A DNA stretch of 64,000 nucleotides from positions 9,473 through 73,472 of the forward strand of contig JAEOSK010000006.1 of the NCBI GenBank assembly GCA_016840405.1, read 5' to 3'. Position numbers and translations under genes: made by a program. Below the pieces are notes generated by a model, which had not been told where the DNA came from, ran no database searches, and worked only from the letters and a program-made list of their open reading frames with translations. Origin of the DNA: Candidatus Hermodarchaeum yapensis. Lineage in GTDB: Archaea; Asgardarchaeota; Hermodarchaeia; Hermodarchaeales; Hermodarchaeaceae. Positions 8,637 through 30,322 of this stretch are shown piece by piece; positions within the stretch are counted from its first letter, which is position 1; each line of letters begins with the position of its first letter.

Positions 8637-8782
8637 CTTGGACCCTCGGGCAGCCCTGAATTGAATTAGACTTTTAGCTGTTCGGGAGATTCAACACTTC
8701 ACCAAGATGCAACAGCGAAAAAAGTATTAGGGCGCCTGTTGGACACAATCATATCTTCCTAGATGCTTCAGGTGAATCATGC

Positions 8783-9904
8783 ATGACTAGCAGTTTCGCA
8801 AATATGGATCCATTACAAGTGCAAAAAGGCTATCGAGATCCGAAACTCGCCCAACAAGCTGCACAAAAAATTAAAGAACTCGCTAAAGACGAAACTTACA
8901 AATTCATGCACTTGTGCGGCACTCACGAATATACCATTACGCACTCAGGAATTCGTCAGCTTCTCCCAAAAAATGTCGAACTAATCGCAGGACCTGGTTG
9001 TCCTGTTTGTATTTGCCCACCAGAAGATGTAGCGTTGGCAATTGAAGTGGCACAGCAACCAAACGCGCTTTTGACGACTTATGGCGATATGATGCGTGTA
9101 CCTGCAGGAGATCTGGGTTCTCTGAATTTAGTTCGAAGTAAGGGTGCTAAGGTCCAAGTCGTGTATAGTATGATGGATGCGATTATTGCTGCAAAGGAAA
9201 ATCCTGACAAGGAGGTTGTGCACTTTGCCATTGGTTTTGAAACCACTACGCCACCAACTGCCGCAGAAATCTTAGGTGATCCTCCGGAAAATTTCAGTGT
9301 TCTGGTTAGCCATCGACTCATTCCACCTGCAGAGGTATTTCTCCTCGAACAAGGTGAAGTGGGACTTCATGGATTCTTACTGCCTGGTCACGTTTCTGTG
9401 ATAATTGGAGTTCAGGGCTATGTTTCGATTTCAGAGCAATATGGAGTTCCTCAAGTGGTGGCCGGTTTTGAACCCTTGGACGTGTTATTAGGGCTGGTTA
9501 TGCTCTTACGCCAAGTAAAGGAGGGACGGGGAGAAGTTGAGAACCAGTATACACGAGCCGTTACCTATGAAGGTAATGTGAAAGCTCGAGAGATGATTGA
9601 CCAGGTTTTCCAGCCAGTTGATGCTCGATGGAGAGGAATCGGACTAATTCCTGAATCGGGACTTGCATTACATGAGAAGTACATGAATTTTGATGTCCGG
9701 ACCCGATTCGATATTAAAATTGAGCCACAGAAATTTGAGATGCCACCAGGATGTAAGTGTGGTGAGGTATTGCGGGGGATTTTGCGTCCAGAAGAGTGCC
9801 CGTTGTTCGGTTCAGGGTGTACACCAGAGAATCCGATTGGTCCATGCATGGTGTCTACGGAGGGGACTTGCAGTGTGGTGTATGGGGCTCAGCCGATTCC
9901 TTAA
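8783..9904 (+). CDS. hypD: [NiFe]-hydrogenase maturation protein HypD
   Basis: Motifs CGTHE, GPGCPVC, GFETT, PGHVS and a C-terminal Cys-rich CKCGEVL...CPLF...CTPENPIGPCMVSTEGTC. Confidence 0.95.
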   Translation: MTSSFANMDPLQVQKGYRDPKLAQQAAQKIKELAKDETYKFMHLCGTHEYTITHSGIRQLLPKNVELIAGPGCPVCICPPEDVALAIEVAQQPNALLTTYGDMMRVPAGDLGSLNLVRSKGAKVQVVYSMMDAIIAAKENPDKEVVHFAIGFETTTPPTAAEILGDPPENFSVLVSHRLIPPAEVFLLEQGEVGLHGFLLPGHVSVIIGVQGYVSISEQYGVPQVVAGFEPLDVLLGLVMLLRQVKEGRGEVENQYTRAVTYEGNVKAREMIDQVFQPVDARWRGIGLIPESGLALHEKYMNFDVRTRFDIKIEPQKFEMPPGCKCGEVLRGILRPEECPLFGSGCTPENPIGPCMVSTEGTCSVVYGAQPIP

Positions 9905-10241
9905 CTTTGGCTAGCTTTTTTGCAAGAACTGCTTCGTGGAATCCTGGGCTTTCCAACCATTGGGCAGCTATTGTTTCAACTTCATCGACTTTAGCTCTAA
10001 GATAGCGGTCAATAAGGATTTCTCGATGAATGTTAGGAATGCCTTTGTCGCGCCAAAAACCCTCAGATTGTTCAGATGAGAGTTTTCGTGGATTTCCTCG
10101 AGCAATGGGTTGGTCGATCACATATCGGGCGAGCTGGGCTGCGAGAAGTTTAGAGTCTGTGCAAAGGAGGCGACCACGAATCCATAACCGACAATTGGTG
10201 CGACCTTGACAGGGACCTCGGGCGATGGAACAAAAAACCAC
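9855..10241 (-). CDS. Hypothetical protein (weak call)
   Basis: 128-aa ORF. Its 3' end overlaps the hypD 3' end by 50 nt (convergent). I recognised no family motif. Confidence 0.25.
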   Translation of the reverse strand: MVFCSIARGPCQGRTNCRLWIRGRLLCTDSKLLAAQLARYVIDQPIARGNPRKLSSEQSEGFWRDKGIPNIHREILIDRYLRAKVDEVETIAAQWLESPGFHEAVLAKKLAKVKESAEPHTPHCKSPP

Positions 10242-16908: not shown

Positions 16909-17388
16909 GTGACATTCATGTCCTTAGATGAATTTCAAGAGAAAATGAGTTGTCGACGATGTGGTCGACCACGAATCATAACGCGTGTTAGTAAACCGAA
17001 AACTGATCTGGTTAAGCTGTATATGCGTTGCCCAGTACACACTTCAGAAGTCGTCTATCGGATGCCTTTGAGTCTATATGATGCAGCCAGTGGAATAATC
17101 CGAGAACATGTGCTTTTGTGTCGAAAGTGTGGGCAACCTGTTGAAATTACCGGACAGCATGCAGGCAAATTATCGACAAAAGTTCGGATTCTATGCCCCG
17201 AGCATGGTGATGGAGAACGGTTGGTGAATAATTCACTTTTTGATCCCATCCTTGCGGCTGTCCCTGCCAAAGCAGCACCAGAAGCCGCAGTGCCTACTGG
17301 TACCTCAAAGTTTTGTTCCAGTTGTGGTTCACCAGTTCCGGCCCCTGAAGCCCAGTTTTGTCATAATTGTGGGGCTTCGATAGATTAG
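16909..17388 (+). CDS. Zinc-ribbon protein with an internally duplicated CxxC...CPxH module and a C-terminal double zinc ribbon
   Basis: First module is CRRCGRP...(21)...CPVH. Second is CRKCGQP...(21)...CPEH. An Ala/Pro linker follows, then FCSSCG...FCHNCG. Confidence 0.6.
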   Translation: MTFMSLDEFQEKMSCRRCGRPRIITRVSKPKTDLVKLYMRCPVHTSEVVYRMPLSLYDAASGIIREHVLLCRKCGQPVEITGQHAGKLSTKVRILCPEHGDGERLVNNSLFDPILAAVPAKAAPEAAVPTGTSKFCSSCGSPVPAPEAQFCHNCGASID

Positions 17389-19401: not shown

Positions 19402-19524
19402 GGGCTTTAGAAGAGTCGACAGAGTAGAGGAAACAGTTAAGGGCATTCTTTGTAATGTTGGAGTTAAGGAGGAAGCAGAGAAGTTTGGGGATTTATAATG
19501 CTTATTCAAAAGTAAAGTAGTGAA

Positions 19525-20912
19525 ATGCCATCTAAGAGGGCCAATCATCAACTCTCCTTAAGTTATCCTTGTGAATCAACCTATCATCCCGGTTGTATTG
19601 AGGAGTATCAATCTTCAATTGCAATTACCATCCCTGGCTATCTCTGTGATCTTACCATTGCTCAGGAAAAAGCATTAACAGATCTAATGCGACAATTCTG
19701 TATTGCACGTCGTTTAGCCTTTACTTTGTGTAATAAGGGAATTCCATATTCATTGATTGAGAAGCACCTTCAAGAAAAAACAGGTTTAAATTCCCGTTAT
19801 ATTAAGGATGCCATCTACTCAGTGAAGAATCTCCCTTCAACAGGTGTTACTTTTGGTGGCAAGAATAATCAATTTAGTAGAATGACAGGAAAAATTTCTC
19901 AGGAGGAATACACGAAGCGGAGAAACTCAATCCTCATATCACGCGGGGACAAAACGAAGAAAGGCAATCTCAATCTTCGAGTTATTAATGAAAATACTAG
20001 TATCAAACTTGCATTAATATTGGCAGAAGGTTCTGGATTGTTACGACGCTATTCATTCCAGACAAATACTATGCTGAATTTAAGGAAATATTAGATGGAC
20101 AAAAACCATATCAAGTTATAATAAAGCGCCGTGAAAACGATAAAAGGTTTGATGTTCGAATTACGGTTACAATAACGCCAAAGATTATTAGCAGAAGTCG
20201 TGTAATGGCACTTGATATAAATTCAGGGCATGTTGACTTTGCTATTCTTGATGATAATCTGCAATTGATTCAATTGGGACGAATTAATTGTTTCACCCTT
20301 TTGTTTGCGTCAGCAAAAAAACGTGCACACTATCTTTTCAAATTTGTTAATCTTATAACAAGAATTGCACAACATTTTGATGCAATGGTCATAGTAGGGA
20401 AGTTAAACACAGGAAGATTTCGTTCTCGGAACAGGCATGCAAATCGACGAATAAAGCAGATGCCTCAATATAATCTTCGACAGATTCTCAAATATAAGCT
20501 ATTACTCGAAGGCATTCCAGTTGAAGAACGTTCAGAAGCATATACTTCAAAAATTGGAAAAGACTTAGCAGCATTGATTGGAGTAGATACTCATAAAGCG
20601 GCGGCAATTCTTTTTGCCCTCAAATTTCTTGATTATCCGAAATTCATGACATTACGCTCATCAACCCAAGATGAGAAACATCTCCCACTCCGTGTTCAAG
20701 CATATAATGAAGGCAATGGAAGTCGGAGTACAACAGAGCTAAGAGTGGGAAGCGGACTTACTGTCCTATCCAAGACTTACCGTCTAGGATACTATGACAC
20801 CACAGATGGTGGAGGCTACCCGGCAATACCAAGTAGCTGGGGGCTCTCCAATTTTGCTGAGAGCCTGAAGCCAAATTTAGTCCAAAGAATCGTTAAAATT
20901 GTTTTAGACTAA
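19525..20912 (+). pseudogene. TnpB-like (OrfB) gene lacking the zinc finger, disrupted by a frameshift near 20019-20040
   Basis: ORFs 19525..20094 and 20205..20912. The second frame is open upstream to 20019 (IGRRFWIVTTLFIPDKYYAEFKEILDGQKPYQVIIKRRENDKRFDVRITVTI...). RuvC-I-like ALDINSGHVDFAILD; then EAYTSKIG...GVDTHKAAAILFALK with no CxxC pairs. By eye it is more A+T-rich than its flanks. Confidence 0.6.
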
Positions 20913-20988
20913 GTTTTCGGTAACTTGGAAGCAGTGTGGAAGCATCCTCAAGGAACCCTAATAAACTAAGTGTAACCTAGGAAAAGTC

Positions 20989-21987
20989 ATGGAATCCACA
21001 ACTAAGCCTATTGAAACCATGACAGCATTGAAGTGCCAATCTTGCAATGCTCCTCTCACCGTCTCACCAGATGACGTGGTTATTGTTTGTGGTTACTGTG
21101 GATACACAACTACAATTGAAGGAGATAAAATTGATAATCACTTCGTGTTGGAACCCACCGTTGACGCTTCAGATGTTAGAGAGAAAGTCACTGACTGGGT
21201 AGGACGAGGTGGTAAAGCTCAAGTGACAGAAGCAATTCTTCGATTCGTACCCTTTTGGGTTGAAGAAATGCACGCACACTCGACATATCAAGGATACAAA
21301 AAACATCAAGAAACCGAATACTATACGGATTCACAGGGTAAACGCCGCTCACGGACCAAAATCGAATACGAACCGATTCAAGGAACTTTTGATGAGAATC
21401 GCTCCATCAATGTGCTATGCCGACGTGGCGCCACATTCTATAGCCAAGGTGAGCTGGATAAGGCACTTCAAGTAACGAAGAGGGAGGTTAAACCTTTCAA
21501 TTATAATTCGATCACTGCAGCTGAAAAGAATCCCCTCTTTTTGAATAGCGAATTAACCGACGCCGATGCGTATGAAATTGCTGAAACCTATGTTGAAGAT
21601 GACCATCGAAGCCGGGCTGATTCGAGGGCAACGGAGATTTGGGATTGTCATACGAGAATCCAAAAAACCGGTTCCTACCTTCTCCACGTCCCTCATTGGC
21701 TCGTTCGATATCGATTTGGTACTGAAACCTATCGAGTTGGAATTGATGGTTATACAAAGAAGGTGCTGAAAGGCGAAGTCCCCGTTACCACCGCCTTTCG
21801 CGCAGCAATGTATTTTGTCAGCATCCTCTTTCTGTTCATCGGTACGGTGGGAACCTACTTCGTAGCTGAATTTCTTAGACCGCAAGGGCTAGAAATGCTA
21901 TCCTTTGCCGTAGTTATCCTTAGCCTTATCATTGCAGCCTTTGCAATTAGGCAAACGTTCAAGATAAGCTCAGAGAAGCGTGAATAA
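20989..21987 (+). CDS. Zn-ribbon / two-TM membrane protein, paralog 1 (YdjG-like architecture)
   Basis: N-terminal CQSCNAPL...CGYCG ribbon. Central HVPHWLVRYRF...YRVGIDGYTKKVLKGEVP. Two C-terminal hydrophobic helices. Confidence 0.7.
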   Translation: MESTTKPIETMTALKCQSCNAPLTVSPDDVVIVCGYCGYTTTIEGDKIDNHFVLEPTVDASDVREKVTDWVGRGGKAQVTEAILRFVPFWVEEMHAHSTYQGYKKHQETEYYTDSQGKRRSRTKIEYEPIQGTFDENRSINVLCRRGATFYSQGELDKALQVTKREVKPFNYNSITAAEKNPLFLNSELTDADAYEIAETYVEDDHRSRADSRATEIWDCHTRIQKTGSYLLHVPHWLVRYRFGTETYRVGIDGYTKKVLKGEVPVTTAFRAAMYFVSILFLFIGTVGTYFVAEFLRPQGLEMLSFAVVILSLIIAAFAIRQTFKISSEKRE

Positions 21988-22018
21988 ATCCAAAATGGAG
22001 AAAATGGGTGATTAAAAA

Positions 22019-23005
22019 ATGGCAAAGAAACATTGTCCGAATTGCGGTGGAGCACTGGATATCCATCCAACTGATGCAATCATTACCTGTTCATATTGCG
22101 GGACATCCTTCACACCTGATGGTACAAAAATGAAGGAACATTTTGCTCTCCAAGTTAATTACTCAGAGAGTGACGCACTGGACACACTCAAAGCCTATCT
22201 TGTCAAGGTGCCTGGCGTAGCTAATGACCTCGCACAGCAAATTTCCTTGAAAGAGATCTCCATGACGTACTATCCATATTGGGTCTATACCGTGCAAGGT
22301 GACGTTTCCTATCGGGGCATCGATAAGAAGGCAAGTTTCCGTGGTCAGTCAGGAGGACGATATTCAAGCATTCACTGGGAGTGGGTTGCAGAATCGGGTC
22401 ATCAAGAACAAACCCGACAAATTCGTCTCTATGCTGGCCCCAAGGTTCGAGGAGAAATTGTGAACTATCCTATCGCAACCCGATCTCGTCGTTACTTCAA
22501 TTTCGAAGAAGCCAAACAACATACCGCCAACGTGCTATTTTCGAAAGTATCAGAGGAAGCAGCAAAACAACAAGCAATAGGAACTACAAAGAACATCATC
22601 TATTCACGGATTAACCGGGAAACGGAACGAGTTGAAGAAGCCAAGGAGAACTTCGTTGTTACAGATCATGCCTACATACATGTACCCATCTACCACATTC
22701 AATTTACTGTGGGTGGAGGTAAAACATACGAGGCTGCACTCGATGCTTCAAATGGCCGGGTAATCTACACAGAGATTCCGCGGACTACAGGGTTCAAACT
22801 GAAGGCTCTAGGCTCTGCAGCCTTTTGGTTTATACTCACAATAATTGGCGCGGCTGTTGCCTTCTTGTCATACCAAGGGATTCATCTGATATCAGGATTG
22901 GATCTCTTTTATCCAGCAATTGGCTTAACGACAATTTCAGGCATCCTTGGAATACTCACGCTCTACTATGTTACCCGAGGAGTAACCGCGGAAAGAGCAC
23001 GCTAG
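22019..23005 (+). CDS. Zn-ribbon / two-TM membrane protein, paralog 2
   Basis: CPNCGGAL...CSYCG, YYPYWVY and HVPIYHIQF...YEAALDASNGRVIYTEIP, with two C-terminal TM helices. Same layout and length as the preceding gene. Confidence 0.7.
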   Translation: MAKKHCPNCGGALDIHPTDAIITCSYCGTSFTPDGTKMKEHFALQVNYSESDALDTLKAYLVKVPGVANDLAQQISLKEISMTYYPYWVYTVQGDVSYRGIDKKASFRGQSGGRYSSIHWEWVAESGHQEQTRQIRLYAGPKVRGEIVNYPIATRSRRYFNFEEAKQHTANVLFSKVSEEAAKQQAIGTTKNIIYSRINRETERVEEAKENFVVTDHAYIHVPIYHIQFTVGGGKTYEAALDASNGRVIYTEIPRTTGFKLKALGSAAFWFILTIIGAAVAFLSYQGIHLISGLDLFYPAIGLTTISGILGILTLYYVTRGVTAERAR

Positions 23006-23009
23006 ACTC

Positions 23010-23215
23010 TAGCCCTCCAAACCATTACAGGTTCGATTCACTACACACTAATAGAGGATACTATCAACAAAGTGGTCCACAACGAGTCCCAGCAAGCGAT
23101 TCAGTGAGACTAACAAGATTTTGTGAACTACCCCGCCCTGAAGCTTGGGGCTTCCTGCTTCGACGCTTCAGCCAGTGCTGACAGCTCCACAGGCTCTTCC
23201 CGAGGTTCCCTCGGT
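23010..23215 (-). ncRNA. Candidate omega-RNA / right-end scaffold of the TnpB element
   Basis: It overlaps the 3' end of tnpB, as is usual for omega-RNAs. Minus-strand hairpins are CCGAGG-gaa-CCUCGG and CUGAAGC-(20 nt)-GCUUCAG, followed by GGGCGGGG. Inference only. Confidence 0.35.
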
Positions 23216-24309
23216 GCCATGATGGATCGTAATCCTATCATCTTGATGTTTTGGGCAGCGTTAGAGTCCCGATCATGCTGCTTATGACACTTAGGACAGG
23301 TCCATTCTTTTTCTGAGAGAGTTAACGCGTTATACTTGAAGCCACAGGCTGAGCAGAGCTGGCTCGTTGCCTCGAACCGCCCTAACGTTATGAATGTCAC
23401 GCCATACCACTCAGCCTTATATTTTAACATCCTGTGAAAGCTAGCCCACGCCGCGTCTGAGATATGTCGTGCTAGTCTACGGTTTCGGATTAAACCTTGT
23501 ACATTCAGGCTCTCCATTATGATCGCTTGGTTCTCGCGTATCAGTCGTGTTGAGAGCTTCTGTTGAAAATCCACACGCTGGTTAGTGACGCGCTCATAGC
23601 ATCGTGCAAGCCTCAGTCTAGCTTTCGTTCGATTTTTTGATCCCTTTTTCTTTCTACTCAGTCTTTTGTGAAGACACCGTAATCTCATGAGCGCGCACCG
23701 AAGGTGCCTGTGATTATCGATTTTCTCACCACCCGACAAGGTGGCATATGTGGTGATACCGACATCAATTCCAATCGAACTCTTTGTAGTGACTCTTCTC
23801 TTCCTGGGAGGAGATTTTCCATCCTCGACCACAATAGAGATGAAGATCTTGCCAGTGTTGGTTGAGACAACGGTGCACGTTTTTGGAATGCCCTCAAATC
23901 TTCGATGAAAGACGGTTTTTACTTGACCAATCTTTGGTAGTCGCACTCTTCGGGTATCAAAGTCGACTGTAAAGAATTGTGGGATATCAAAGGACTGTCT
24001 GTGTTGTTTTCTACTCTTGAATTTAGGATATCCGTACCTTTTTTCATCGTGATTGGCGCGTTGAAAGAAATGTTTGAAAGCTAGGTGGAGCCGCTTGACT
24101 GCCTGTTGGAGGGACTGGGAATTGACATGCTTAAGAAATGGATGGTCCTGTTTAAGTTGTATGAGGAGGTGGTTCAGGTCGTACCAGCTCAGACTCTTGC
24201 CGTCCTCATCATACACACGCATCTTTGTTTCTAGTGCCCAGTTATAAACGAACCGACAGGCATCCGTGTTTTTCCGAATTCGTTCGCGCTGAATCTTGTT
24301 TGGATACAA
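23128..24309 (-). CDS. tnpB: TnpB (IS200/IS605 OrfB) RNA-guided endonuclease family, apparently intact
   Basis: N-terminus (Y)RLYPNKIQRERI. RuvC-I is IGIDVGITTYATLS, RuvC-II is AIIMESLNVQGL. Zn ribbon is CSACG...CPKCH. RuvC-III is HDRDSNAAQNI. TTG start; no ATG or GTG is available further upstream in frame. Confidence 0.9.
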   Translation of the reverse strand: MYPNKIQRERIRKNTDACRFVYNWALETKMRVYDEDGKSLSWYDLNHLLIQLKQDHPFLKHVNSQSLQQAVKRLHLAFKHFFQRANHDEKRYGYPKFKSRKQHRQSFDIPQFFTVDFDTRRVRLPKIGQVKTVFHRRFEGIPKTCTVVSTNTGKIFISIVVEDGKSPPRKRRVTTKSSIGIDVGITTYATLSGGEKIDNHRHLRCALMRLRCLHKRLSRKKKGSKNRTKARLRLARCYERVTNQRVDFQQKLSTRLIRENQAIIMESLNVQGLIRNRRLARHISDAAWASFHRMLKYKAEWYGVTFITLGRFEATSQLCSACGFKYNALTLSEKEWTCPKCHKQHDRDSNAAQNIKMIGLRSIMAPREPREEPVELSALAEASKQEAPSFRAG

Positions 24310-24460
24310 ACGATACCTGTAGGTTCGCAGTATATGATTAGGTTTCTCAACGGGCTATTCGAAGATCTTGATTCACTCCCCACCAGAAAGAAGGGTTCTT
24401 CACGAGATTTTATAAGCCCTTAGCACAATGCCTAGATAGTGATTGTCGAGGTGACTCCCG

Positions 24461-25006
24461 TTGGGAGATGATGATAAACCCTCTATTATGGAAAAAGTCG
24501 ATGACGAACGCACCCTTACACAAAAAATTATGAAATTGATCCCAGGATGGCGGGGATACCGGATTAAGGAAGAACGGCGCAACGCTGATCGAATCCTTCG
24601 TGACCAAATAGTTAACCGTCTTCGTAGCTGTCAAGATACCATTCAAGACATCCGAGTAGCTGTCGTTGATGCAGAAATTGAATATGCCTACCGTACTGTT
24701 GATTCTCTAATGAGTCGGACTGAAAAAATCATCAGTCAAATTGAACATGCAGATTATGGATACAGACCCTTTTTCGATGCTATCAAAATTAAAGAAGATG
24801 ACCTCATGAACATGCTCAGATTTGACACATGGTTCACTGAACAGGTTCAAGAGTTTGACCGGCGTTGTAGTGACACTCTAACGCTTGTTGAAGATGCACC
24901 TGATGAAGCCGTTGGACACATCAAAGATCTTCGGAAAATGGTTTCAGAAATGAGCCGAAAGTGGAAAGATCGAGAGCAAGTGATAATGGGTGTTGAAGTA
25001 GTCTAA
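24461..25006 (+). CDS. Hypothetical all-helical (coiled-coil-like) protein
   Basis: 181 aa, rich in charged heptad-like segments (GYRIKEERRNADRILRDQIVNRL...). It lies between the Zn-ribbon paralogs and the SPFH gene. Alternative ATG at 24488. Confidence 0.6.
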   Translation: MGDDDKPSIMEKVDDERTLTQKIMKLIPGWRGYRIKEERRNADRILRDQIVNRLRSCQDTIQDIRVAVVDAEIEYAYRTVDSLMSRTEKIISQIEHADYGYRPFFDAIKIKEDDLMNMLRFDTWFTEQVQEFDRRCSDTLTLVEDAPDEAVGHIKDLRKMVSEMSRKWKDREQVIMGVEVV

Positions 25007-25016
25007 ATGGATCTGG

Positions 25017-25034
25017 GTCCTTTTTTGGACCCTG
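25017..25034 (+). terminator. Hairpin GGGTCC-TTTTTT-GGACCC just after the stop of 24461..25006
   Basis: Perfect 6-bp inverted repeat followed by T-rich sequence. Archaeal terminators are oligo-T based, so a functional role is an inference. Confidence 0.3.
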
Positions 25035-25305
25035 ATTTTCTTTTCTTTACTAACCAAAAACAACCAAGTTCCTTAAGCGGAAAATCGGTTGGGCCATTTG
25101 CTGATATCATGAATGGTGGCTATGGTTAATCTTTATACGTCAGCGGGATTTCACAAGTGTGATTTCTTCGAAATATTGTGGTGTAAATTTTTTGCATTCG
25201 TTTAAAATTAATTTGAGTGATGTAGTAAAGTTGAAAAGGCTGGGCACGAAAGACACCTCAAACCTTCTATAACCCCCAACTGGATTTCCAGGGGGAGAAA
25301 GAATC

Positions 25306-26295
25306 ATGCCAGAGATTATTGAATGGAAGAAAATGCGTAAGGACGATATGGTCTATCGTTGGCCTAATGATCTCGTGAAATGGGGCAGTCAGTGTCTCGT
25401 TCGCGAAAACCAAGCAGCCGTCTTTTATCGTGATGGAAAAGCCCTTGATGTAATGGGTGTTGGCCGTCACACACTCACCACAGCTAATGTACCTATTCTC
25501 ACAGGAATTCTTCGAAGGATTGCCGGCTTTGACAAGTCACCCTTTACTGCTGAAGTCATCTTTATCAACATGACCAAATTCCAAGGGAAGTTTGGCGGTC
25601 GAGGGCAGACACGTGATTTAGCACCCCTCATGTTTCATGGAGAATTCTGGTACGAAATCGACGACGCTCAAATCTTCGTCAACGAAGTCGTAGCAGGAGA
25701 GAACTATACAACCCAAGACGCCACGACCTTTATTCGATCCAAATTCGTCGAATTGGCGATGGACGAATTGTCAGGTTATTCACTTCAAAATGCCATGACC
25801 AGGCTTGATGAGACCAGCATGAAGGCAAAGACTCGATTAGCTGATAAATTCGAAGAATACGGTTTGAAATTGTTAGACATGGCCTTTGCCGGCATGGATA
25901 CTGAACCCGAATACCGTGAACGGCTCTTCTTCGCTGCTCAAGGTGTCACTGGTCAGCAGGTCCTCACCGCTGAGACAATGCGTCGAAGTGCCGAAGCCCT
26001 AGGTCAAGGTGGAGGAGCAGCCGCTGCCGGTTCAGGAATAGTGCTCATACCACAACTCGCCGATATGATGCGCCAGTCACAGAAACCACAAGATGCAGGG
26101 GTCACTGCTGTAATGTGTCCCTATTGTGGTGAAGCAGCTCCACTCCACAAGAACAAGGCGCCCAAGTTCTGTCCGAACTGTGGAAAGGTTCTCCGGAAAC
26201 AAGTCGAAGCACAAGCGAAGGCGAAGAAGTTCTGTCCGAACTGTGGTGCCCCTGCAAAGGGTAAGTTCTGCGCTGAATGTGGCGAAAAGCTTTAG
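25306..26295 (+). CDS. SPFH/Band-7 domain protein with C-terminal zinc ribbons (YdjI / COG4260-like)
   Basis: N-terminus IIEWKKMRKDDMVYRWPNDLVKWGSQCLVRENQAAVFYRDGK is typical of the YdjI / 'virion core protein-like' SPFH family. The C-terminus has CPYCG, KFCPNCG, KFCPNCG and KFCAECG. GGGGGAGAAAG RBS upstream. Confidence 0.8.
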   Translation: MPEIIEWKKMRKDDMVYRWPNDLVKWGSQCLVRENQAAVFYRDGKALDVMGVGRHTLTTANVPILTGILRRIAGFDKSPFTAEVIFINMTKFQGKFGGRGQTRDLAPLMFHGEFWYEIDDAQIFVNEVVAGENYTTQDATTFIRSKFVELAMDELSGYSLQNAMTRLDETSMKAKTRLADKFEEYGLKLLDMAFAGMDTEPEYRERLFFAAQGVTGQQVLTAETMRRSAEALGQGGGAAAAGSGIVLIPQLADMMRQSQKPQDAGVTAVMCPYCGEAAPLHKNKAPKFCPNCGKVLRKQVEAQAKAKKFCPNCGAPAKGKFCAECGEKL

Positions 26296-26304
26296 GTGGA
26301 CACT

Positions 26305-26334
26305 GGGGCTTTCGCCCCTCCTTCTTTCTTTTTT
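26305..26334 (+). terminator. GGGGC-TTTC-GCCCC hairpin followed by a T-rich tract
   Basis: Lies 10 nt after the stop of the SPFH gene, followed by tccttctttcttttttcc. Confidence 0.4.
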
Positions 26335-26458
26335 CCATCAGTTGTAGTTTTTGCCAACTAGAATTATCTAGGTTGTAAGTTATACTTTTCAGCTTGTTTA
26401 AATACAGCTAATCAGCTGGTAGTAATGAACACGTGTTTCCTACTTAGTGGTCCCAATC

Positions 26459-27853
26459 ATGAAAGGATACGCTAAAAACCTATCATTTGCCCTCTTCGGA
26501 TTTTTGCTACTCTTCCTTCTTGTTCCTGGTCAATCTCAGGCACTTCCTCCTCAATACTGGACACCAGGAATTGAACAACAATTCTTTGGTCACACCTTTG
26601 CGGAGCATATGTGGACCAACGATTCCATCGTCTTCGAGTCGGAGAACAACGACACCGTTCAGTTCATAGCGAGCTACTTGAATTACGAAGATGCAGGAAA
26701 AAGCTTTCAGGCGATGCTCATCGCCTTGGGTGTTGTAGAAAACGAAAATGGCACCCAATCAACTCTTCCATACCAGCTTTTTGGTCTCCATTTCACGACC
26801 AAAGATAACAAGGATGTCTTCGCTGGATCCTTGCTGGCCTTCCTCTTCGGGTTCAACGACACAGACCACAACGGTGTGCCAAGTCCCGGGGAAAACCGGT
26901 TCTTCATCATTCCATATGGTTTCAACGAAGGCAATTCTACAGCCCCTCTGAGCATCGAAGCGATTCCTGTAACGAAACTATCTGAAGACCACTACCAGTT
27001 TGGCATTCGTTATCAAAATCTGTATGGACGACTGATTTCGGCCAACGATGCTGGGGAATTTTTACTAACTTTGCTCATGCCGTTATTTGAAATCACATTC
27101 AGTGAATTAACAGTAATCTATGATATTCAGATTGATCGTGAAACAGGAGAAATTACCACGGAGACATATTATACGATTGGACAGGTCACTGAATTTCTAT
27201 TTCTAGGGACATCAGTTCCCAACTTTCATGAAGCCTTAGGTGATATTGGAATTGGTGTCGCACATCTTGGCATCGTATTAACTCCGAGATACTACGTCCG
27301 TACAGCAGGTGGACTTCCAGTCAGTGGAACCGACCAATCCTTAGCCAACATCACAACGGATTTGCGAGGACGACAACGAGCCTTTGCTCTGACAACACGA
27401 GGAACCTACGATGTCATCAATGAAACTACTGATCCTGATACAACAATTCAATCGAATCTTCCCGCGTACAGTTGGATTCTCTCTCCAGAGCCAATTGACC
27501 TAATCCTAATGCTATGGCAATTACCAATTTCAGCGACTATCTTCAGTATTTTTGCATATGCTATGAGTGATTATCTACAAAATCTCTTCAGTGGTCCACT
27601 CGATGTGTTGAATCATGCAGATACGATTTTCAATACGGCCGCCTTTTGGTTTGGCATCACATTTCCCGAATCCAATGGCTATCGTGTTGAACACGACCCT
27701 GTGTATACTGCATTTTCGAATATAGGACAATTCGCCAGTCCCCTTGGGTTAGTTATCTTGGGATGCATCGCGTTAATCGCCCTCATCATTGTAGTTCTTC
27801 AAGTCATCCGAGCGAATGGGCGAACGAAAAACAACCACACCAATCAAAAATGA
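26459..27853 (+). CDS. Secreted, sequon-rich surface protein with C-terminal TM anchor, paralog A
   Basis: Signal-peptide-like MKGYAKNLSFALFGFLLLFLLVPGQSQA, at least 7 N-x-S/T sequons after it, and a C-terminal hydrophobic helix plus basic tail. Clearly paralogous to 28937..30322. The track ORF starts at 26447. Confidence 0.7.
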   Translation: MKGYAKNLSFALFGFLLLFLLVPGQSQALPPQYWTPGIEQQFFGHTFAEHMWTNDSIVFESENNDTVQFIASYLNYEDAGKSFQAMLIALGVVENENGTQSTLPYQLFGLHFTTKDNKDVFAGSLLAFLFGFNDTDHNGVPSPGENRFFIIPYGFNEGNSTAPLSIEAIPVTKLSEDHYQFGIRYQNLYGRLISANDAGEFLLTLLMPLFEITFSELTVIYDIQIDRETGEITTETYYTIGQVTEFLFLGTSVPNFHEALGDIGIGVAHLGIVLTPRYYVRTAGGLPVSGTDQSLANITTDLRGRQRAFALTTRGTYDVINETTDPDTTIQSNLPAYSWILSPEPIDLILMLWQLPISATIFSIFAYAMSDYLQNLFSGPLDVLNHADTIFNTAAFWFGITFPESNGYRVEHDPVYTAFSNIGQFASPLGLVILGCIALIALIIVVLQVIRANGRTKNNHTNQK

Positions 27854-28032: not shown

Positions 28033-28779
28033 ATGACAGACCTTGACGAATTCCTCACAGCCATTGGACATCCATTACGCCGTCAAATCCTCGAAACCGT
28101 TTATTCTCATCCCGATATCTCGTATTCACAAATCCTAACTCGAGTAAATATTTCAAGTGGAAAACTGAATTTCCATTTACAGAAATTGGAACCTTTTCTA
28201 GCCCAAGTGGAAGGGCAATATCGCATTTCAAAAGAAGGATTGAAACTTTATCGCACGTGGCAACAGCTTGAAGGTCGATTAAGTGGTACTAAAACTCCAA
28301 AAAGTGAAAGACCAGGATTCTTCGCATTTCGTCGGACAATAGCGTTTTTCATTGATATTGCATTGATTCTGTCCCTTTTATTCATCGCAGCAGATGTATC
28401 TTCGCTAATTTTTGAACCCGCTTGGTGGCTCTGGAGTATACCAGTACCTGTTTTTTTAACGCGAATTATTGAGATGATGGTGTTATACCCTCCCGATTTG
28501 ACTGTAGTGTTAATCCGAGCTTTTGTACTAGCGATTTTGTGGATGTATTTTACAATTATGGAAGGGTATCGAGGGCAAACAATTGGTAAGATGATGCTTG
28601 GTGTTCAAATTATCCAAGTTGGTGGGGCTCGCATGATACCCCATGCTGCAGCCATTCGCGCCTTGACAAAAGTACTCATTCTTCCTTTTGATCTTCTTGT
28701 TGGTCTGATAAAATCGCGTAAAGCGGGTTTTCTCCGGTTCTTTGGCCAATATACTAGATCTTGGGTTATTCGAGCATAA
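28033..28779 (+). CDS. ArsR-like winged-helix domain fused to an RDD-family membrane domain
   Basis: N-terminus AIGHPLRRQILETVYSHPDISYSQILTRVNISSGKLNFHLQKL (wHTH). The C-terminal half has 3-4 TM helices with RRTIAFFIDIALI (RDD-like). Confidence 0.7.
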   Translation: MTDLDEFLTAIGHPLRRQILETVYSHPDISYSQILTRVNISSGKLNFHLQKLEPFLAQVEGQYRISKEGLKLYRTWQQLEGRLSGTKTPKSERPGFFAFRRTIAFFIDIALILSLLFIAADVSSLIFEPAWWLWSIPVPVFLTRIIEMMVLYPPDLTVVLIRAFVLAILWMYFTIMEGYRGQTIGKMMLGVQIIQVGGARMIPHAAAIRALTKVLILPFDLLVGLIKSRKAGFLRFFGQYTRSWVIRA

Positions 28780-28936: not shown

Positions 28937-30322
28937 ATGAAACTAAAATGGAAAATTCTTCCCGCAGTGTTTCTAATGTTTGCATTCGTACTTCTCTCTC
29001 CAGCGACAACCCAAGCACTCCCCCCAGAAACTTATAATCCAGGCGATGAAGCAGCCATCTTTGACGGCCACACTTTCACTGAGGATTATTGGACCGTTGA
29101 GAAAACATTCACGGATGATGCAACTAATGATAGTGCAGAGATCATCATGAGCTACGTCAATTATGGTGGAACGGGCGGATTTCATGCAGCCCTATTAGCT
29201 CTTGGTGATGTTTATGACTACTCAGAAGACACCAACTCAACACTTCCTTACCAGTTGTTTGCGATGCACTTCACGACTCCGTCCGGTAAAGAAATCTTTG
29301 CTGGGGCAGTCTTTGCCTTCCTCTACGCTTTCAATGACAGTAACTTGAATTATGTTGTTGATGGCGCTGAAGAAAGATGGTTCCTTGTTCCCTTCGGTTG
29401 GAATGGTGGTAACCGCACAGCTGATCCTGTTGCTAGTGCCGTTGAAGTGACCAATCCTGAACCAGGACATTACCGATTTGGTGTGACTTACGAGAATCTG
29501 TACTGCCGAATCGTCATCCCCATCGAAACGGGGCTTGTCGAATTCTTAGCTTCTCTCCATCTTCCACTCTTCGAAGTGCAAATCAGTGAACTGACTTTCA
29601 CCTACGACATTGAAGTTGACACAGACACGGGTGAGATTACCGCAGAAACCTTCTACACTATTGGTCAAGTCCAAGCATTTTATGCCTTGGGTCAGACCTT
29701 CAGTGACTTTGCGGAAATCAACGCAGCTCTCACAAACGTCACCGTGGGGGCCGCTCACTTTGTGACGGTCTTTGGCTCCAACTATTGGGTCGAAGAAGGA
29801 ACAACCACTCCTATGCCAGCAGCGGATTGGATTACTGCCAACGTTACCACAGATCCTGCAGGCAATGAACGTGCATTTGCTGTAGGAGTTCGAGGTACAT
29901 ACGACCTCATCAACGAGACAGATTCCACCACTGTTGAATCAGGTCTACCTGCTATCAGTTGGATCTTCTCGCCAGTACTTAGTGACCTCCTCTTTCTTGC
30001 CTGGCAACTACCAATTTCTGCGGACTTTCTCTCCGTCTTCGCTTATGCAGTAAGTCCTACCCTACAGCTGTTCTATGACGGCCCACGCGATGTCTACGAC
30101 AATGCTAATACACTCTATGGAGCTCAAGCATTCTGGTACGCAATTGCCTTCCCACGTTTCGGCGGGTATCGAATCGAACACGACCCAGTGTACACCGCCT
30201 ATTCAAACATTGGCCAAGCAGCACCGCCTGGTATCCCTGGATTTCCATGGGAAGCCGTAATTATCGGTGTGGTTGCCTGTTTAACAGCGGTCTTCCTCGT
30301 GCGTCGCCGTAAAAAAGCTTAA
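28937..30322 (+). CDS. Secreted, sequon-rich surface protein with PGF-CTERM-like anchor, paralog B
   Basis: Signal peptide MKLKWKILPAVFLMFAFVLLSPATTQA. It shares blocks with paralog A (STLPYQLF..HFTT, WQLPISA, YR.EHDPVYTA.SNIGQ). The C-terminus is PGIPGFPWEAVIIGVVACLTAVFLVRRRKKA. Confidence 0.7.
   Translation: MKLKWKILPAVFLMFAFVLLSPATTQALPPETYNPGDEAAIFDGHTFTEDYWTVEKTFTDDATNDSAEIIMSYVNYGGTGGFHAALLALGDVYDYSEDTNSTLPYQLFAMHFTTPSGKEIFAGAVFAFLYAFNDSNLNYVVDGAEERWFLVPFGWNGGNRTADPVASAVEVTNPEPGHYRFGVTYENLYCRIVIPIETGLVEFLASLHLPLFEVQISELTFTYDIEVDTDTGEITAETFYTIGQVQAFYALGQTFSDFAEINAALTNVTVGAAHFVTVFGSNYWVEEGTTTPMPAADWITANVTTDPAGNERAFAVGVRGTYDLINETDSTTVESGLPAISWIFSPVLSDLLFLAWQLPISADFLSVFAYAVSPTLQLFYDGPRDVYDNANTLYGAQAFWYAIAFPRFGGYRIEHDPVYTAYSNIGQAAPPGIPGFPWEAVIIGVVACLTAVFLVRRRKKA

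Follow-up and report, generated by a model that had tools for sequence, protein, structure and literature searches.

The DNA analysed here is a 64-kb stretch from the Asgard archaeon Candidatus Hermodarchaeum yapensis (contig JAEOSK010000006.1; "the window", whose positions are used as coordinates throughout), the closest database relatives of which carry Thorarchaeota or Promethearchaeota labels. Four genes on its forward strand encode two paralogous membrane proteins of the YdjG type (A and B), a helical protein that we call HEL, and a protein of the SPFH family of the YdjI/SamI type. An insertion sequence (IS) with a tnpB gene on the reverse strand lies between gene B and the HEL gene. All five open reading frames are present where an earlier note, made from the sequence alone, had placed them (Table 1). 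That note had taken the four same-strand genes for a coherent set, which is borne out by relatives of the locus (labelled L001–L095): the set is kept in IS-free form in Thorarchaeota (L001/L002, L003 and L094), and its core recurs in 80 distant loci. Synteny of the four genes in other genomes, on which the earlier note had made its proposal depend, was thus found in other Thorarchaeota. We hypothesize, with a probability of roughly 60%, that the locus represents a relative of the YdjG/YdjI (SamG/SamI) module that lacks PspA and is built around a different partner, HEL. This reading is drawn from the homology of A and B to YdjG and of the SPFH protein to YdjI, as judged from sequence and profile comparisons, from the absence of PspA and YdjH, and from the coupling of the HEL gene to the SPFH gene.

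In Bacillus subtilis, YdjG and YdjH recruit the soluble protein YdjI to the membrane, and YdjI in turn recruits PspA (PMC8581546). The genes ydjGHI have been renamed samGHI, and the SamGHI complex is described as sensing membrane stress, with a developmental phenotype that is independent of PspA (bioRxiv 10.64898/2026.02.06.704340). In YdjG, a pair of Zn ribbons at the N-terminus is combined with an NTF2-like domain related to YpeB and with a transmembrane (TM) segment (PMC11237479). Ravi et al. describe the link of YdjG/H/I with PspA in Firmicutes only. The reference operon pspA-ydjGHI of B. subtilis was taken from a metagenome contig by means of the pattern of a published ydjG primer (PMC8581546). 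Pfam recognizes PspA_IM30, Zn_Ribbon_TF (YdjG), TPM (YdjH) and Band_7_1 with a Zn ribbon (YdjI) in the proteins of the recovered operon.

The SPFH protein of the window matches the Pfam model Band_7_1 (PF13421, COG4260) over residues 16–195 with 80.2 bits (cut-off 24); B. subtilis YdjI reaches 146.9 bits on the same model. CxxC motifs at residues 271, 289, 310 and 322 make up two C-terminal Zn ribbons (Zn_ribbon_3 32.1, cut-off 27; DZR 27.8, cut-off 27.3), and a scan of the sequence detected no hydrophobic segment or TM helix. BLASTP alignment with YdjI (E 1e-18, 24% identity) extends into the Zn ribbon, and both proteins have the architecture of a Band_7_1 domain, then a low-complexity linker and a C-terminal Zn ribbon, in agreement with the YdjI/COG4260 type named in the earlier note. 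By sequence identity the protein belongs to the clade of SPFH proteins that are encoded next to HEL: it is 42–49% identical to HEL-linked archaeal members, versus 24–27% to YdjI and to the SPFH protein of L007, a locus in which a Band_7_1 gene is followed by a YdjG-like gene without HEL, as in Bacillus.

The two Zn-ribbon proteins with paired TM helices are paralogs, as had been described (24% identity over 304 amino acids, E 6e-23, BLASTP). Each carries one N-terminal CxxC-x14-CxxC ribbon (C16/C19/C34/C37 in A; C6/C9/C24/C27 in B) and two C-terminal hydrophobic helices (about 264–296 and 298–327 in A; 261–291 and 296–318 in B). In the AlphaFold2 (AF2) model of A (pLDDT 84) these helices span residues 268–295 and 304–323, next to a central alpha+beta region. 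Profile comparison indicates that both paralogs are true homologs of YdjG, because the profile of the archaeal family matches B. subtilis YdjG with an hhalign probability of 99.4% (E 2e-21, 251 columns) and single-sequence BLASTP finds YdjG as well (E 2e-8 for A, E 4e-6 for B). The hhalign match covers YdjG residues 50–319, from the second Zn ribbon through the C-terminal membrane segment, and in BLASTP the single ribbon of A aligns to this second ribbon. A jackhmmer search seeded with YdjG finds the archaeal proteins; 107-amino-acid Zn-ribbon proteins and fragments of 70–132 amino acids, which were matched by the ribbon alone, were discarded from its output, and the set at E<1e-30 was kept. 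A match to PepSY/YpeB in residues 176–251 of B is weak and below the Pfam cut-off (E 0.012). The model of A further contains an unusually long beta-hairpin (strands 78–113 and 119–143, pLDDT about 74–95), of which the Bathyarchaeal YdjG-like homologs have a shorter version. As modelled, this hairpin might point to an oligomeric ring. Foldseek matches of the model to beta-pore-forming toxins and to proteins with ring-building motifs were rejected as evidence (E≥0.05, TM-score ≤0.16).

The earlier note had seen a YdjG/YdjH pair in A and B. The YdjG part of this assignment stands, and the YdjH part does not: YdjH is a TPM-domain protein (3e-23 on Pfam TPM, PF04536, TPM_phosphatase), Pfam gave no such hit on the four proteins, and jackhmmer seeded with YdjH remained blank in the window and 90 related loci. 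A search seeded with PspA was equally blank in the same sequences. Among the neighbouring genes inspected in the window and the related loci there were no ESCRT, Vps4 or adaptin-type genes, no search having been aimed at these.

HEL belongs to a large family for which there is no Pfam model and of which no named member was seen. A profile search in 1.84 billion representatives, clustered at 50% identity, retrieved 1111 members at E≤1e-3, and 456 at the stricter threshold of E≤1e-10. With few exceptions they are 165–190 amino acids long; they carry no Pfam domain, and every name given in the sources is "hypothetical protein". In full-text literature searches, neither a description of the helical family nor one of its coupling to Band_7_1 genes turned up, and searches of PDB sequences, with HEL alone as well as with the family profile, yielded noise only. 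Among the models of Pfam, NCBIfam, PADLOC and PHROGs, a single one matches HEL over its full length, namely NCBIfam NF047596 "LIMLP_15305 family protein" (residues 10–175, E 2e-11). The score of 44 bits lies far below the equivalog cut-off of 210 bits; the full-length match therefore places the Leptospira proteins in the same superfamily as HEL, short of equivalog membership. LIMLP_15305 is a Leptospira locus tag that is merely listed beside a small RNA, and neither the article nor its supplement annotates the adjacent genes (PMC7567364).

The AF2 model of HEL is all-helical (pLDDT 79, pTM 0.72), with helices at residues 9–24, 30–70, 74–95, 112–145 and 147–169; D, E, K and R account for 38% of the sequence, and the pI is 5.05. 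Two conserved motifs, PG(F/Y/W)xGY..KE.RR.AD..LR and (A)xYGYxGFFDxxKI..E..LD.LY.FD, rich in W/Y/F and R/K, are placed in the loops that connect helix 1 to helix 2 and helix 3 to helix 4. In an up-down bundle both loops would lie at one end of the protein, where they may form a tip that binds the membrane interface, a Zn ribbon or the SPFH domain. Rare fusions add a C-terminal DUF4178 domain (P0135, Pfam 2e-16), an N-terminal Zn ribbon of the DZR/Zn_Ribbon_1 type that is also found on the SPFH protein (P0132, P0159, P0185) or an N-terminal TM helix (P0100).

For the analysis of gene neighbourhoods, 80 loci were taken from a scan of GTDB species genomes with a HEL-family pattern derived from members sharing YGYxGFFD; open reading frames were called in the loci and then searched iteratively with the four window proteins. 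The HEL proteins of these loci are 27–38% identical to that of the window and fall into 13 clusters at 50% identity. Adjacency of HEL and SPFH genes is testable in those 75 loci whose sequence continues for 600 bp or more downstream of HEL, and the coupling is near-invariant: in 73 of them the HEL stop codon is followed, at a distance of −1 to +26 bp, by the start of a Band_7_1 SPFH gene, which usually encodes four C-terminal CxxC motifs. A YdjG-like gene is present in 34 of the 80 loci and stands directly upstream in 23; a downstream pair of Thorarchaeota-like YdjG proteins of about 325 amino acids with two TM helices occurs in L028, L063, L068 and L083. Counted by neighbour family, HEL is found in 85, SPFH in 79 and YdjG-like proteins in 41 loci. 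The next commonest families reach at most 24, so the linkage of the three exceeds general synteny.

The loci are labelled Bathyarchaeia (the majority), Nitrososphaeria, Thermofilaceae, Brockarchaeota, Frey-, Jord- and Thorarchaeota, with one DPANN archaeon, Methanocella and several bacteria besides; L050/L075 and L089 look genuinely bacterial. The PspA-free SPFH/YdjG module with the new partner also occurs outside Asgard archaea. In L089, a metagenome-assembled genome of Pyrinomonadaceae, a Zn-ribbon/TM/Toastrack (DUF4097) protein (8673..9938 of that locus) is encoded between HEL and SPFH. Toastrack and DUF4178 are both partners in phage-shock-protein systems (PMC11237479), by which this gene and the HEL-DUF4178 fusion provide links to envelope-stress systems. 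As a separate observation, the genes upstream in L089 resemble gas-vesicle GvpF/L-like and GvpG-like genes by sequence.

Compared to the sigma-W operon pspA-ydjGHI of B. subtilis, the archaeal locus likewise encodes YdjG-type and YdjI-type proteins together on one strand, and its YdjG-like proteins share with YdjG the Zn ribbon, a predicted alpha+beta region that may be YpeB/PepSY-like, and the C-terminal membrane attachment. It differs by the lack of PspA and of YdjH/TPM, and by a duplicated YdjG that has a single Zn ribbon, where the Bacillus protein has two, and two TM helices, where the latter has one. It further differs by the unrelated HEL of 181 amino acids as constant partner of the archaeal SPFH clade, and by its Asgard host, in which the SPFH protein has only 24% identity to YdjI.

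SPFH/NfeD operons (stomatin-NfeD and flotillin-YqiJ/YuaF) offer another comparison. A small partner gene is located just upstream of the SPFH gene in these operons, near-invariantly and often with overlapping stop and start codons; the NfeD partners reside in the membrane and contain an OB-fold. HEL is likewise encoded by a small dedicated gene tightly upstream of SPFH; in contrast to NfeD it is soluble and all-helical without a Pfam NfeD match, and its SPFH protein belongs to the TM-less Band_7_1 clade. The relevant passages of Makarova et al. (2024; PMC10936438) describe SPFH proteins of "Meth_adaptin" ESCRT loci, also archaeal, which combine the SPFH domain with a coiled coil and Zn ribbons and are considered in a context of membrane remodelling. 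Their genes lie in Vps4/ESCRT neighbourhoods of methanogens; these passages mention YdjI in passing, in another SPFH context, and do not mention HEL.

With PspA, Vipp1 and ESCRT-III proteins HEL has in common that it is helical and charged, of a similar size class and encoded beside a YdjI-type SPFH gene, as is PspA. The earlier note had for this place expected a PspA/ESCRT-III-like partner. The location next to the SPFH gene is correct, whereas the notion of a simple stand-in for PspA is contradicted by HEL having its own large family coupled to the SPFH clade, and neither profile, sequence, fold nor an alpha0 helix supports kinship in any of the tests run. HEL has no Pfam match to PspA_IM30 or Snf7. 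Profile and fold comparisons of the kind proposed in the earlier note gave hhalign probabilities of 0.47% against B. subtilis PspA and 0.45% against a four-sequence PspA/Vipp1 alignment (the E. coli member entered by hand, the other three taken from program output); at E≤10, a search of all PDB sequences with the HEL profile listed no PspA, Vipp1 or ESCRT-III. Foldseek with the HEL model found nothing at E≤1e-3 in the PDB, although PspA/Vipp1 entries and the CdvB2 filament are included there. The best PDB match is the four-helix bundle of IncA (E 0.07, TM-score 0.41), CdvB2 is on rank 18 (E 0.3, TM-score 0.29), and in BFVD a phage PspA/IM30 is on rank 2 (E 0.03, TM-score 0.25–0.31, rmsd 28 Å). 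With a model at pLDDT 79 and a closed monomer set against open polymers, the CdvB2 and phage matches are treated as noise usual for helical proteins. An amphipathic alpha0 helix is not seen in HEL (residues 5–26: hydrophobic moment 0.13–0.37, mean hydrophobicity negative), and helix lengths of 41, 22, 34 and 23 residues do not fit an alpha1/alpha2+3 hairpin; a compact bundle is predicted instead. The PspAA domain (Ravi et al.) was ruled out as the identity of HEL, because it contains a four-stranded beta-sheet. An annotation of the helical protein as "archaeal PspA-like", although tempting, is unsupported and should be dropped.

These results make it highly improbable that HEL truly belongs to the PspA/Vipp1/ESCRT-III superfamily as an extremely diverged member. 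The case for such an origin consists of the positional analogy with pspA and the two weak Foldseek matches, against which stand the blank Pfam, profile and fold searches and the misfit of helix lengths, and a non-ESCRT-III fold is already the more likely outcome. HEL might instead be a functional analogue of PspA without being a homolog, which the SPFH protein recruits to damaged membrane, and which oligomerises there, seals or remodels the bilayer and thus replaces PspA (and YdjH). In Bacillus the YdjG/YdjI pair indeed shares its operon with PspA, which it recruits (PMC8581546). The window and the 90 loci contain neither PspA nor TPM, with HEL as the constant extra component; HEL is all-helical and highly charged, and two loops at the same end of its predicted bundle present conserved aromatic and basic residues; the faint, non-significant matches to CdvB2 and phage PspA/IM30 point the same way. 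However, we consider this analogy unlikely, as AF2 returns a compact bundle (pTM 0.72) without a long hairpin, an amphipathic N-terminal helix is lacking, and spacing of the translational-coupling type suggests a partner of fixed stoichiometry rather than an inducible effector.

Other explanations dispense with the comparison to PspA. The module could serve in conflict or defence, or form some other cassette without a housekeeping function, with the SPFH and Zn-ribbon proteins as sensors of phage or effectors of abortive infection and the nearby IS elements as marks of a variable island. Two TnpB insertions and strain-variable genes between HEL and SPFH would fit this picture, and defence systems often contain membrane proteins rich in Zn ribbons. 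PspA and the ydj genes of B. subtilis are reportedly taken up in a study on CBASS. Nevertheless, a defence role is very unlikely: PADLOC gives only Zn-ribbon noise for the four proteins, there is no meaningful PHROG match, tblastn of a bacterial HEL found no copy in 72,556 plasmids, and the same core-like chromosomal context (radical SAM, PCMT/GCD14 methyltransferase, RDD/HTH) is kept in Thorarchaeota down to 63% HEL identity. It is hardly credible, finally, that the four genes are mere neighbours by recent common ancestry and without a functional link. The flanking genes are also syntenic in Thorarchaeota, and conservation within that lineage alone therefore proves little. Against this, the adjacency of HEL and SPFH in 73 of 75 loci is seen at 27–38% HEL identity, in several phyla and in both domains; the 13 HEL clusters show that the 80 loci are not near-identical genomes, YdjG-like genes recur in differing arrangements (single upstream, or as a downstream pair), and other flanking genes are less conserved.

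For the favoured reading of a PspA-free YdjG/YdjI module with HEL as new partner, several observations have to be counted on the negative side. A physical link between HEL and the SPFH protein is putative, and in two loci (L056, L065) no SPFH gene adjoins that of HEL. Bathyarchaeia account for most of the 80 loci, and some contigs with bacterial or Methanocella labels in which HEL is at least 50% identical to Bathyarchaeial proteins (L027, L047, L074, L077, L078) may be mis-binned. The model of HEL is only moderately confident in both motif loops (pLDDT 54–79). The Bathyarchaeal YdjG-like proteins (about 247 amino acids) lack TM helices, and a role as anchor is therefore not universal. In Thorarchaeota the gap between HEL and SPFH is loose, with 300 bp in the window and 200–245 bp or whole genes in relatives, versus 0–26 bp elsewhere; this lineage thus does not require tight co-translation. 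In 24 loci, most of them Bathyarchaeal (e.g. L061, 9532..9876), the SPFH gene is directly followed by one for a multi-TM protein of about 115 amino acids, which may be an alternative membrane anchor where the TM helices of YdjG-like proteins are lost.

We suggest the following model of the module. The two YdjG-like proteins would be anchored by their C-terminal TM hairpin, with Zn ribbon and alpha+beta domain exposed to the cytoplasm, and together provide a membrane attachment site. The soluble YdjI-type SPFH protein would dock on them and oligomerise under the membrane as SPFH proteins do. HEL would be the dedicated and probably stoichiometric partner of this SPFH clade; it would complete the SPFH assembly, cap it, or tie it to the membrane via a conserved aromatic and basic tip. 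By analogy with the Bacillus system, the module most likely functions in membrane-stress sensing or membrane organisation; complex formation, topology, the role of the HEL tip and a function in stress are all proposed on such analogy.

SPFH proteins are universal membrane organisers, the working partners of which are poorly known beyond a few bacteria. The present data add an unnamed conserved partner family of more than 1000 sequence clusters, almost always encoded just upstream of one SPFH clade, and extend the reach of the YdjG/YdjI pair to archaea including Asgard archaea, without PspA. The locus thereby offers targets for studying how TM-less SPFH proteins assemble at membranes, and PspA is possibly an add-on to such modules rather than their core. 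A more speculative extension, which we put forward tentatively, is that HEL represents a new and widespread family of SPFH-coupled membrane effectors, mainly archaeal and to some extent bacterial, and that YdjG/YdjI is an ancient core with swappable effectors, PspA and TPM in Firmicutes and HEL elsewhere. HEL could then act in membrane repair or remodelling independent of ESCRT-III, or alternatively as the missing wall or lid subunit of an SPFH cage with two components. If this is true, a HEL-based route of repair or remodelling would be present in Asgard, TACK and other archaea.

Table 1. Features of the locus, with positions in the 64-kb window.
Feature	Position	Strand	Remarks
Degenerate TnpB-like IS remnant	19479..21004	+	split open reading frames 19525..20094 and 20205..20912; just 5′ of gene A
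YdjG-like protein A	20989..21987	+	332 amino acids; N-terminal Zn ribbon, alpha+beta centre, two C-terminal TM helices
YdjG-like protein B	22019..23005	+	328 amino acids; paralog of A with the same architecture
IS200/IS605-type element, tnpB only	23123..24406	-	in the spacer between gene B and the HEL gene
tnpB open reading frame	23128..24309	-	full-length TnpB
Candidate archaeal TATA box TTTATAA of the HEL gene	24409..24415	+	read from the sequence; putative function
HEL, helical protein	24461..25006	+	181 amino acids; family without Pfam model
Terminator-like hairpin GGGTCC-TTTTTT-GGACCC with T-rich tail	25015..25042	+	directly 3′ of HEL; match to consensus only
YdjI/SamI-type SPFH protein	25306..26295	+	329 amino acids; Band_7_1, Gly/Ala-rich linker, two C-terminal Zn ribbons
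Terminator-like hairpin 3′ of the SPFH gene	26305..26328	+	match to consensus only

The IS-free four-gene sets of Thorarchaeota cover different distances from the window: HEL is 63% identical in L001/L002 and 85% in L003, while L094 is 97% identical in paralog A and 91–92% identical at the nucleotide level. The limits of the intact IS were set by comparison with L094, and GATTTT is found on both sides. As reported earlier, an intact TnpB element thus occupies the spacer between the second and third gene on the opposite strand. Its TnpB reaches 312.6 bits on NCBIfam guided_TnpB (cut-off 100) and 378.7 bits (E 2.9e-113) on IS200_TnpB, below the "exception" cut-off of 425, and comprises the Pfam domains HTH_OrfB_IS605 (4e-10), OrfB_IS605 (RuvC; 2e-24) and Cas12f1-like_TNB (7e-23). 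The element carries tnpB alone, without TnpA, and the same insertion is found in the sister strain L095. The tnpB reading frame stops at most 5 nt from the end of the element, with its last ~34 residues beyond the conserved TnpB core (23123..23230, reverse strand), and a putative omega-RNA would therefore have to overlap the coding region.

A second, degenerate element, not flagged in the earlier note, is located between a radical-SAM gene and paralog A. It was recognized by blastn as a 1526-bp segment that is missing from L094, and its second open reading frame matches NCBIfam TIGR01766 (2e-12) and guided_TnpB (1.4e-11). The halves of its tnpB are separated by a frameshift, and the C-terminal Zn finger is lacking. 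This remnant supplies the first 30 nt of the annotated reading frame of A, and because these nucleotides are replaced relative to L094, the conserved start of A is probably M11 (ATG at 21019). A second copy of either IS, or another TnpB detectable by tblastn, was not found in the window; Rfam and tRNA scans of the whole window were without a match, with no Rfam family at gathering score.

The earlier note had suggested that the intact IS potentially uncouples an operon. This appears doubtful, since the TTTATAA box is kept beside the IS, L095 shares the insertion, inserts between HEL and SPFH are tolerated in relatives, and a hairpin follows HEL. The IS adjoins the upstream side of the box, which is located 45 nt before the HEL start and is present at the same place in the IS-free L094. 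Between HEL and SPFH, L094 and L095 contain a 4.8-kb block of six genes (L094 8880..13651), including tRNA_edit, Metallophos and an SNF transporter. This block is absent from the window, where its junction lies near 25143–25146. At the same place L003 has a 1.3-kb cation-efflux gene (8790..10073) and L001 has none. The HEL-SPFH spacer is a hot spot of gene gain or loss in Thorarchaeota. Considering the retained TTTATAA beside the IS and the hairpins after HEL and SPFH, the genes in this lineage probably form two or three transcription units, and the IS may well disable nothing. The two TnpB insertions are recent strain-level events, by which the module is probably not inactivated.

Further genes of the region are conserved around the four-gene set. 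Upstream, the window encodes a 159-amino-acid protein with a double Zn ribbon of the type found at the C-terminus of the SPFH protein (16909..17388), which is kept upstream in other Thorarchaeota (156–161 amino acids; DZR matches in L002, L003 and L094). Downstream, two paralogs of about 465 amino acids (26447..27853 and 28937..30322; 46% identity, E 2e-138) each carry a signal-like segment at the N-terminus and a TM helix at the C-terminus; the former of the two is without a Pfam match. A membrane protein with helix-turn-helix (HTH) and RDD domains (28033..28779) is encoded between them, and this trio is kept 3′ of the SPFH gene in the Thorarchaeota L001 and L003.

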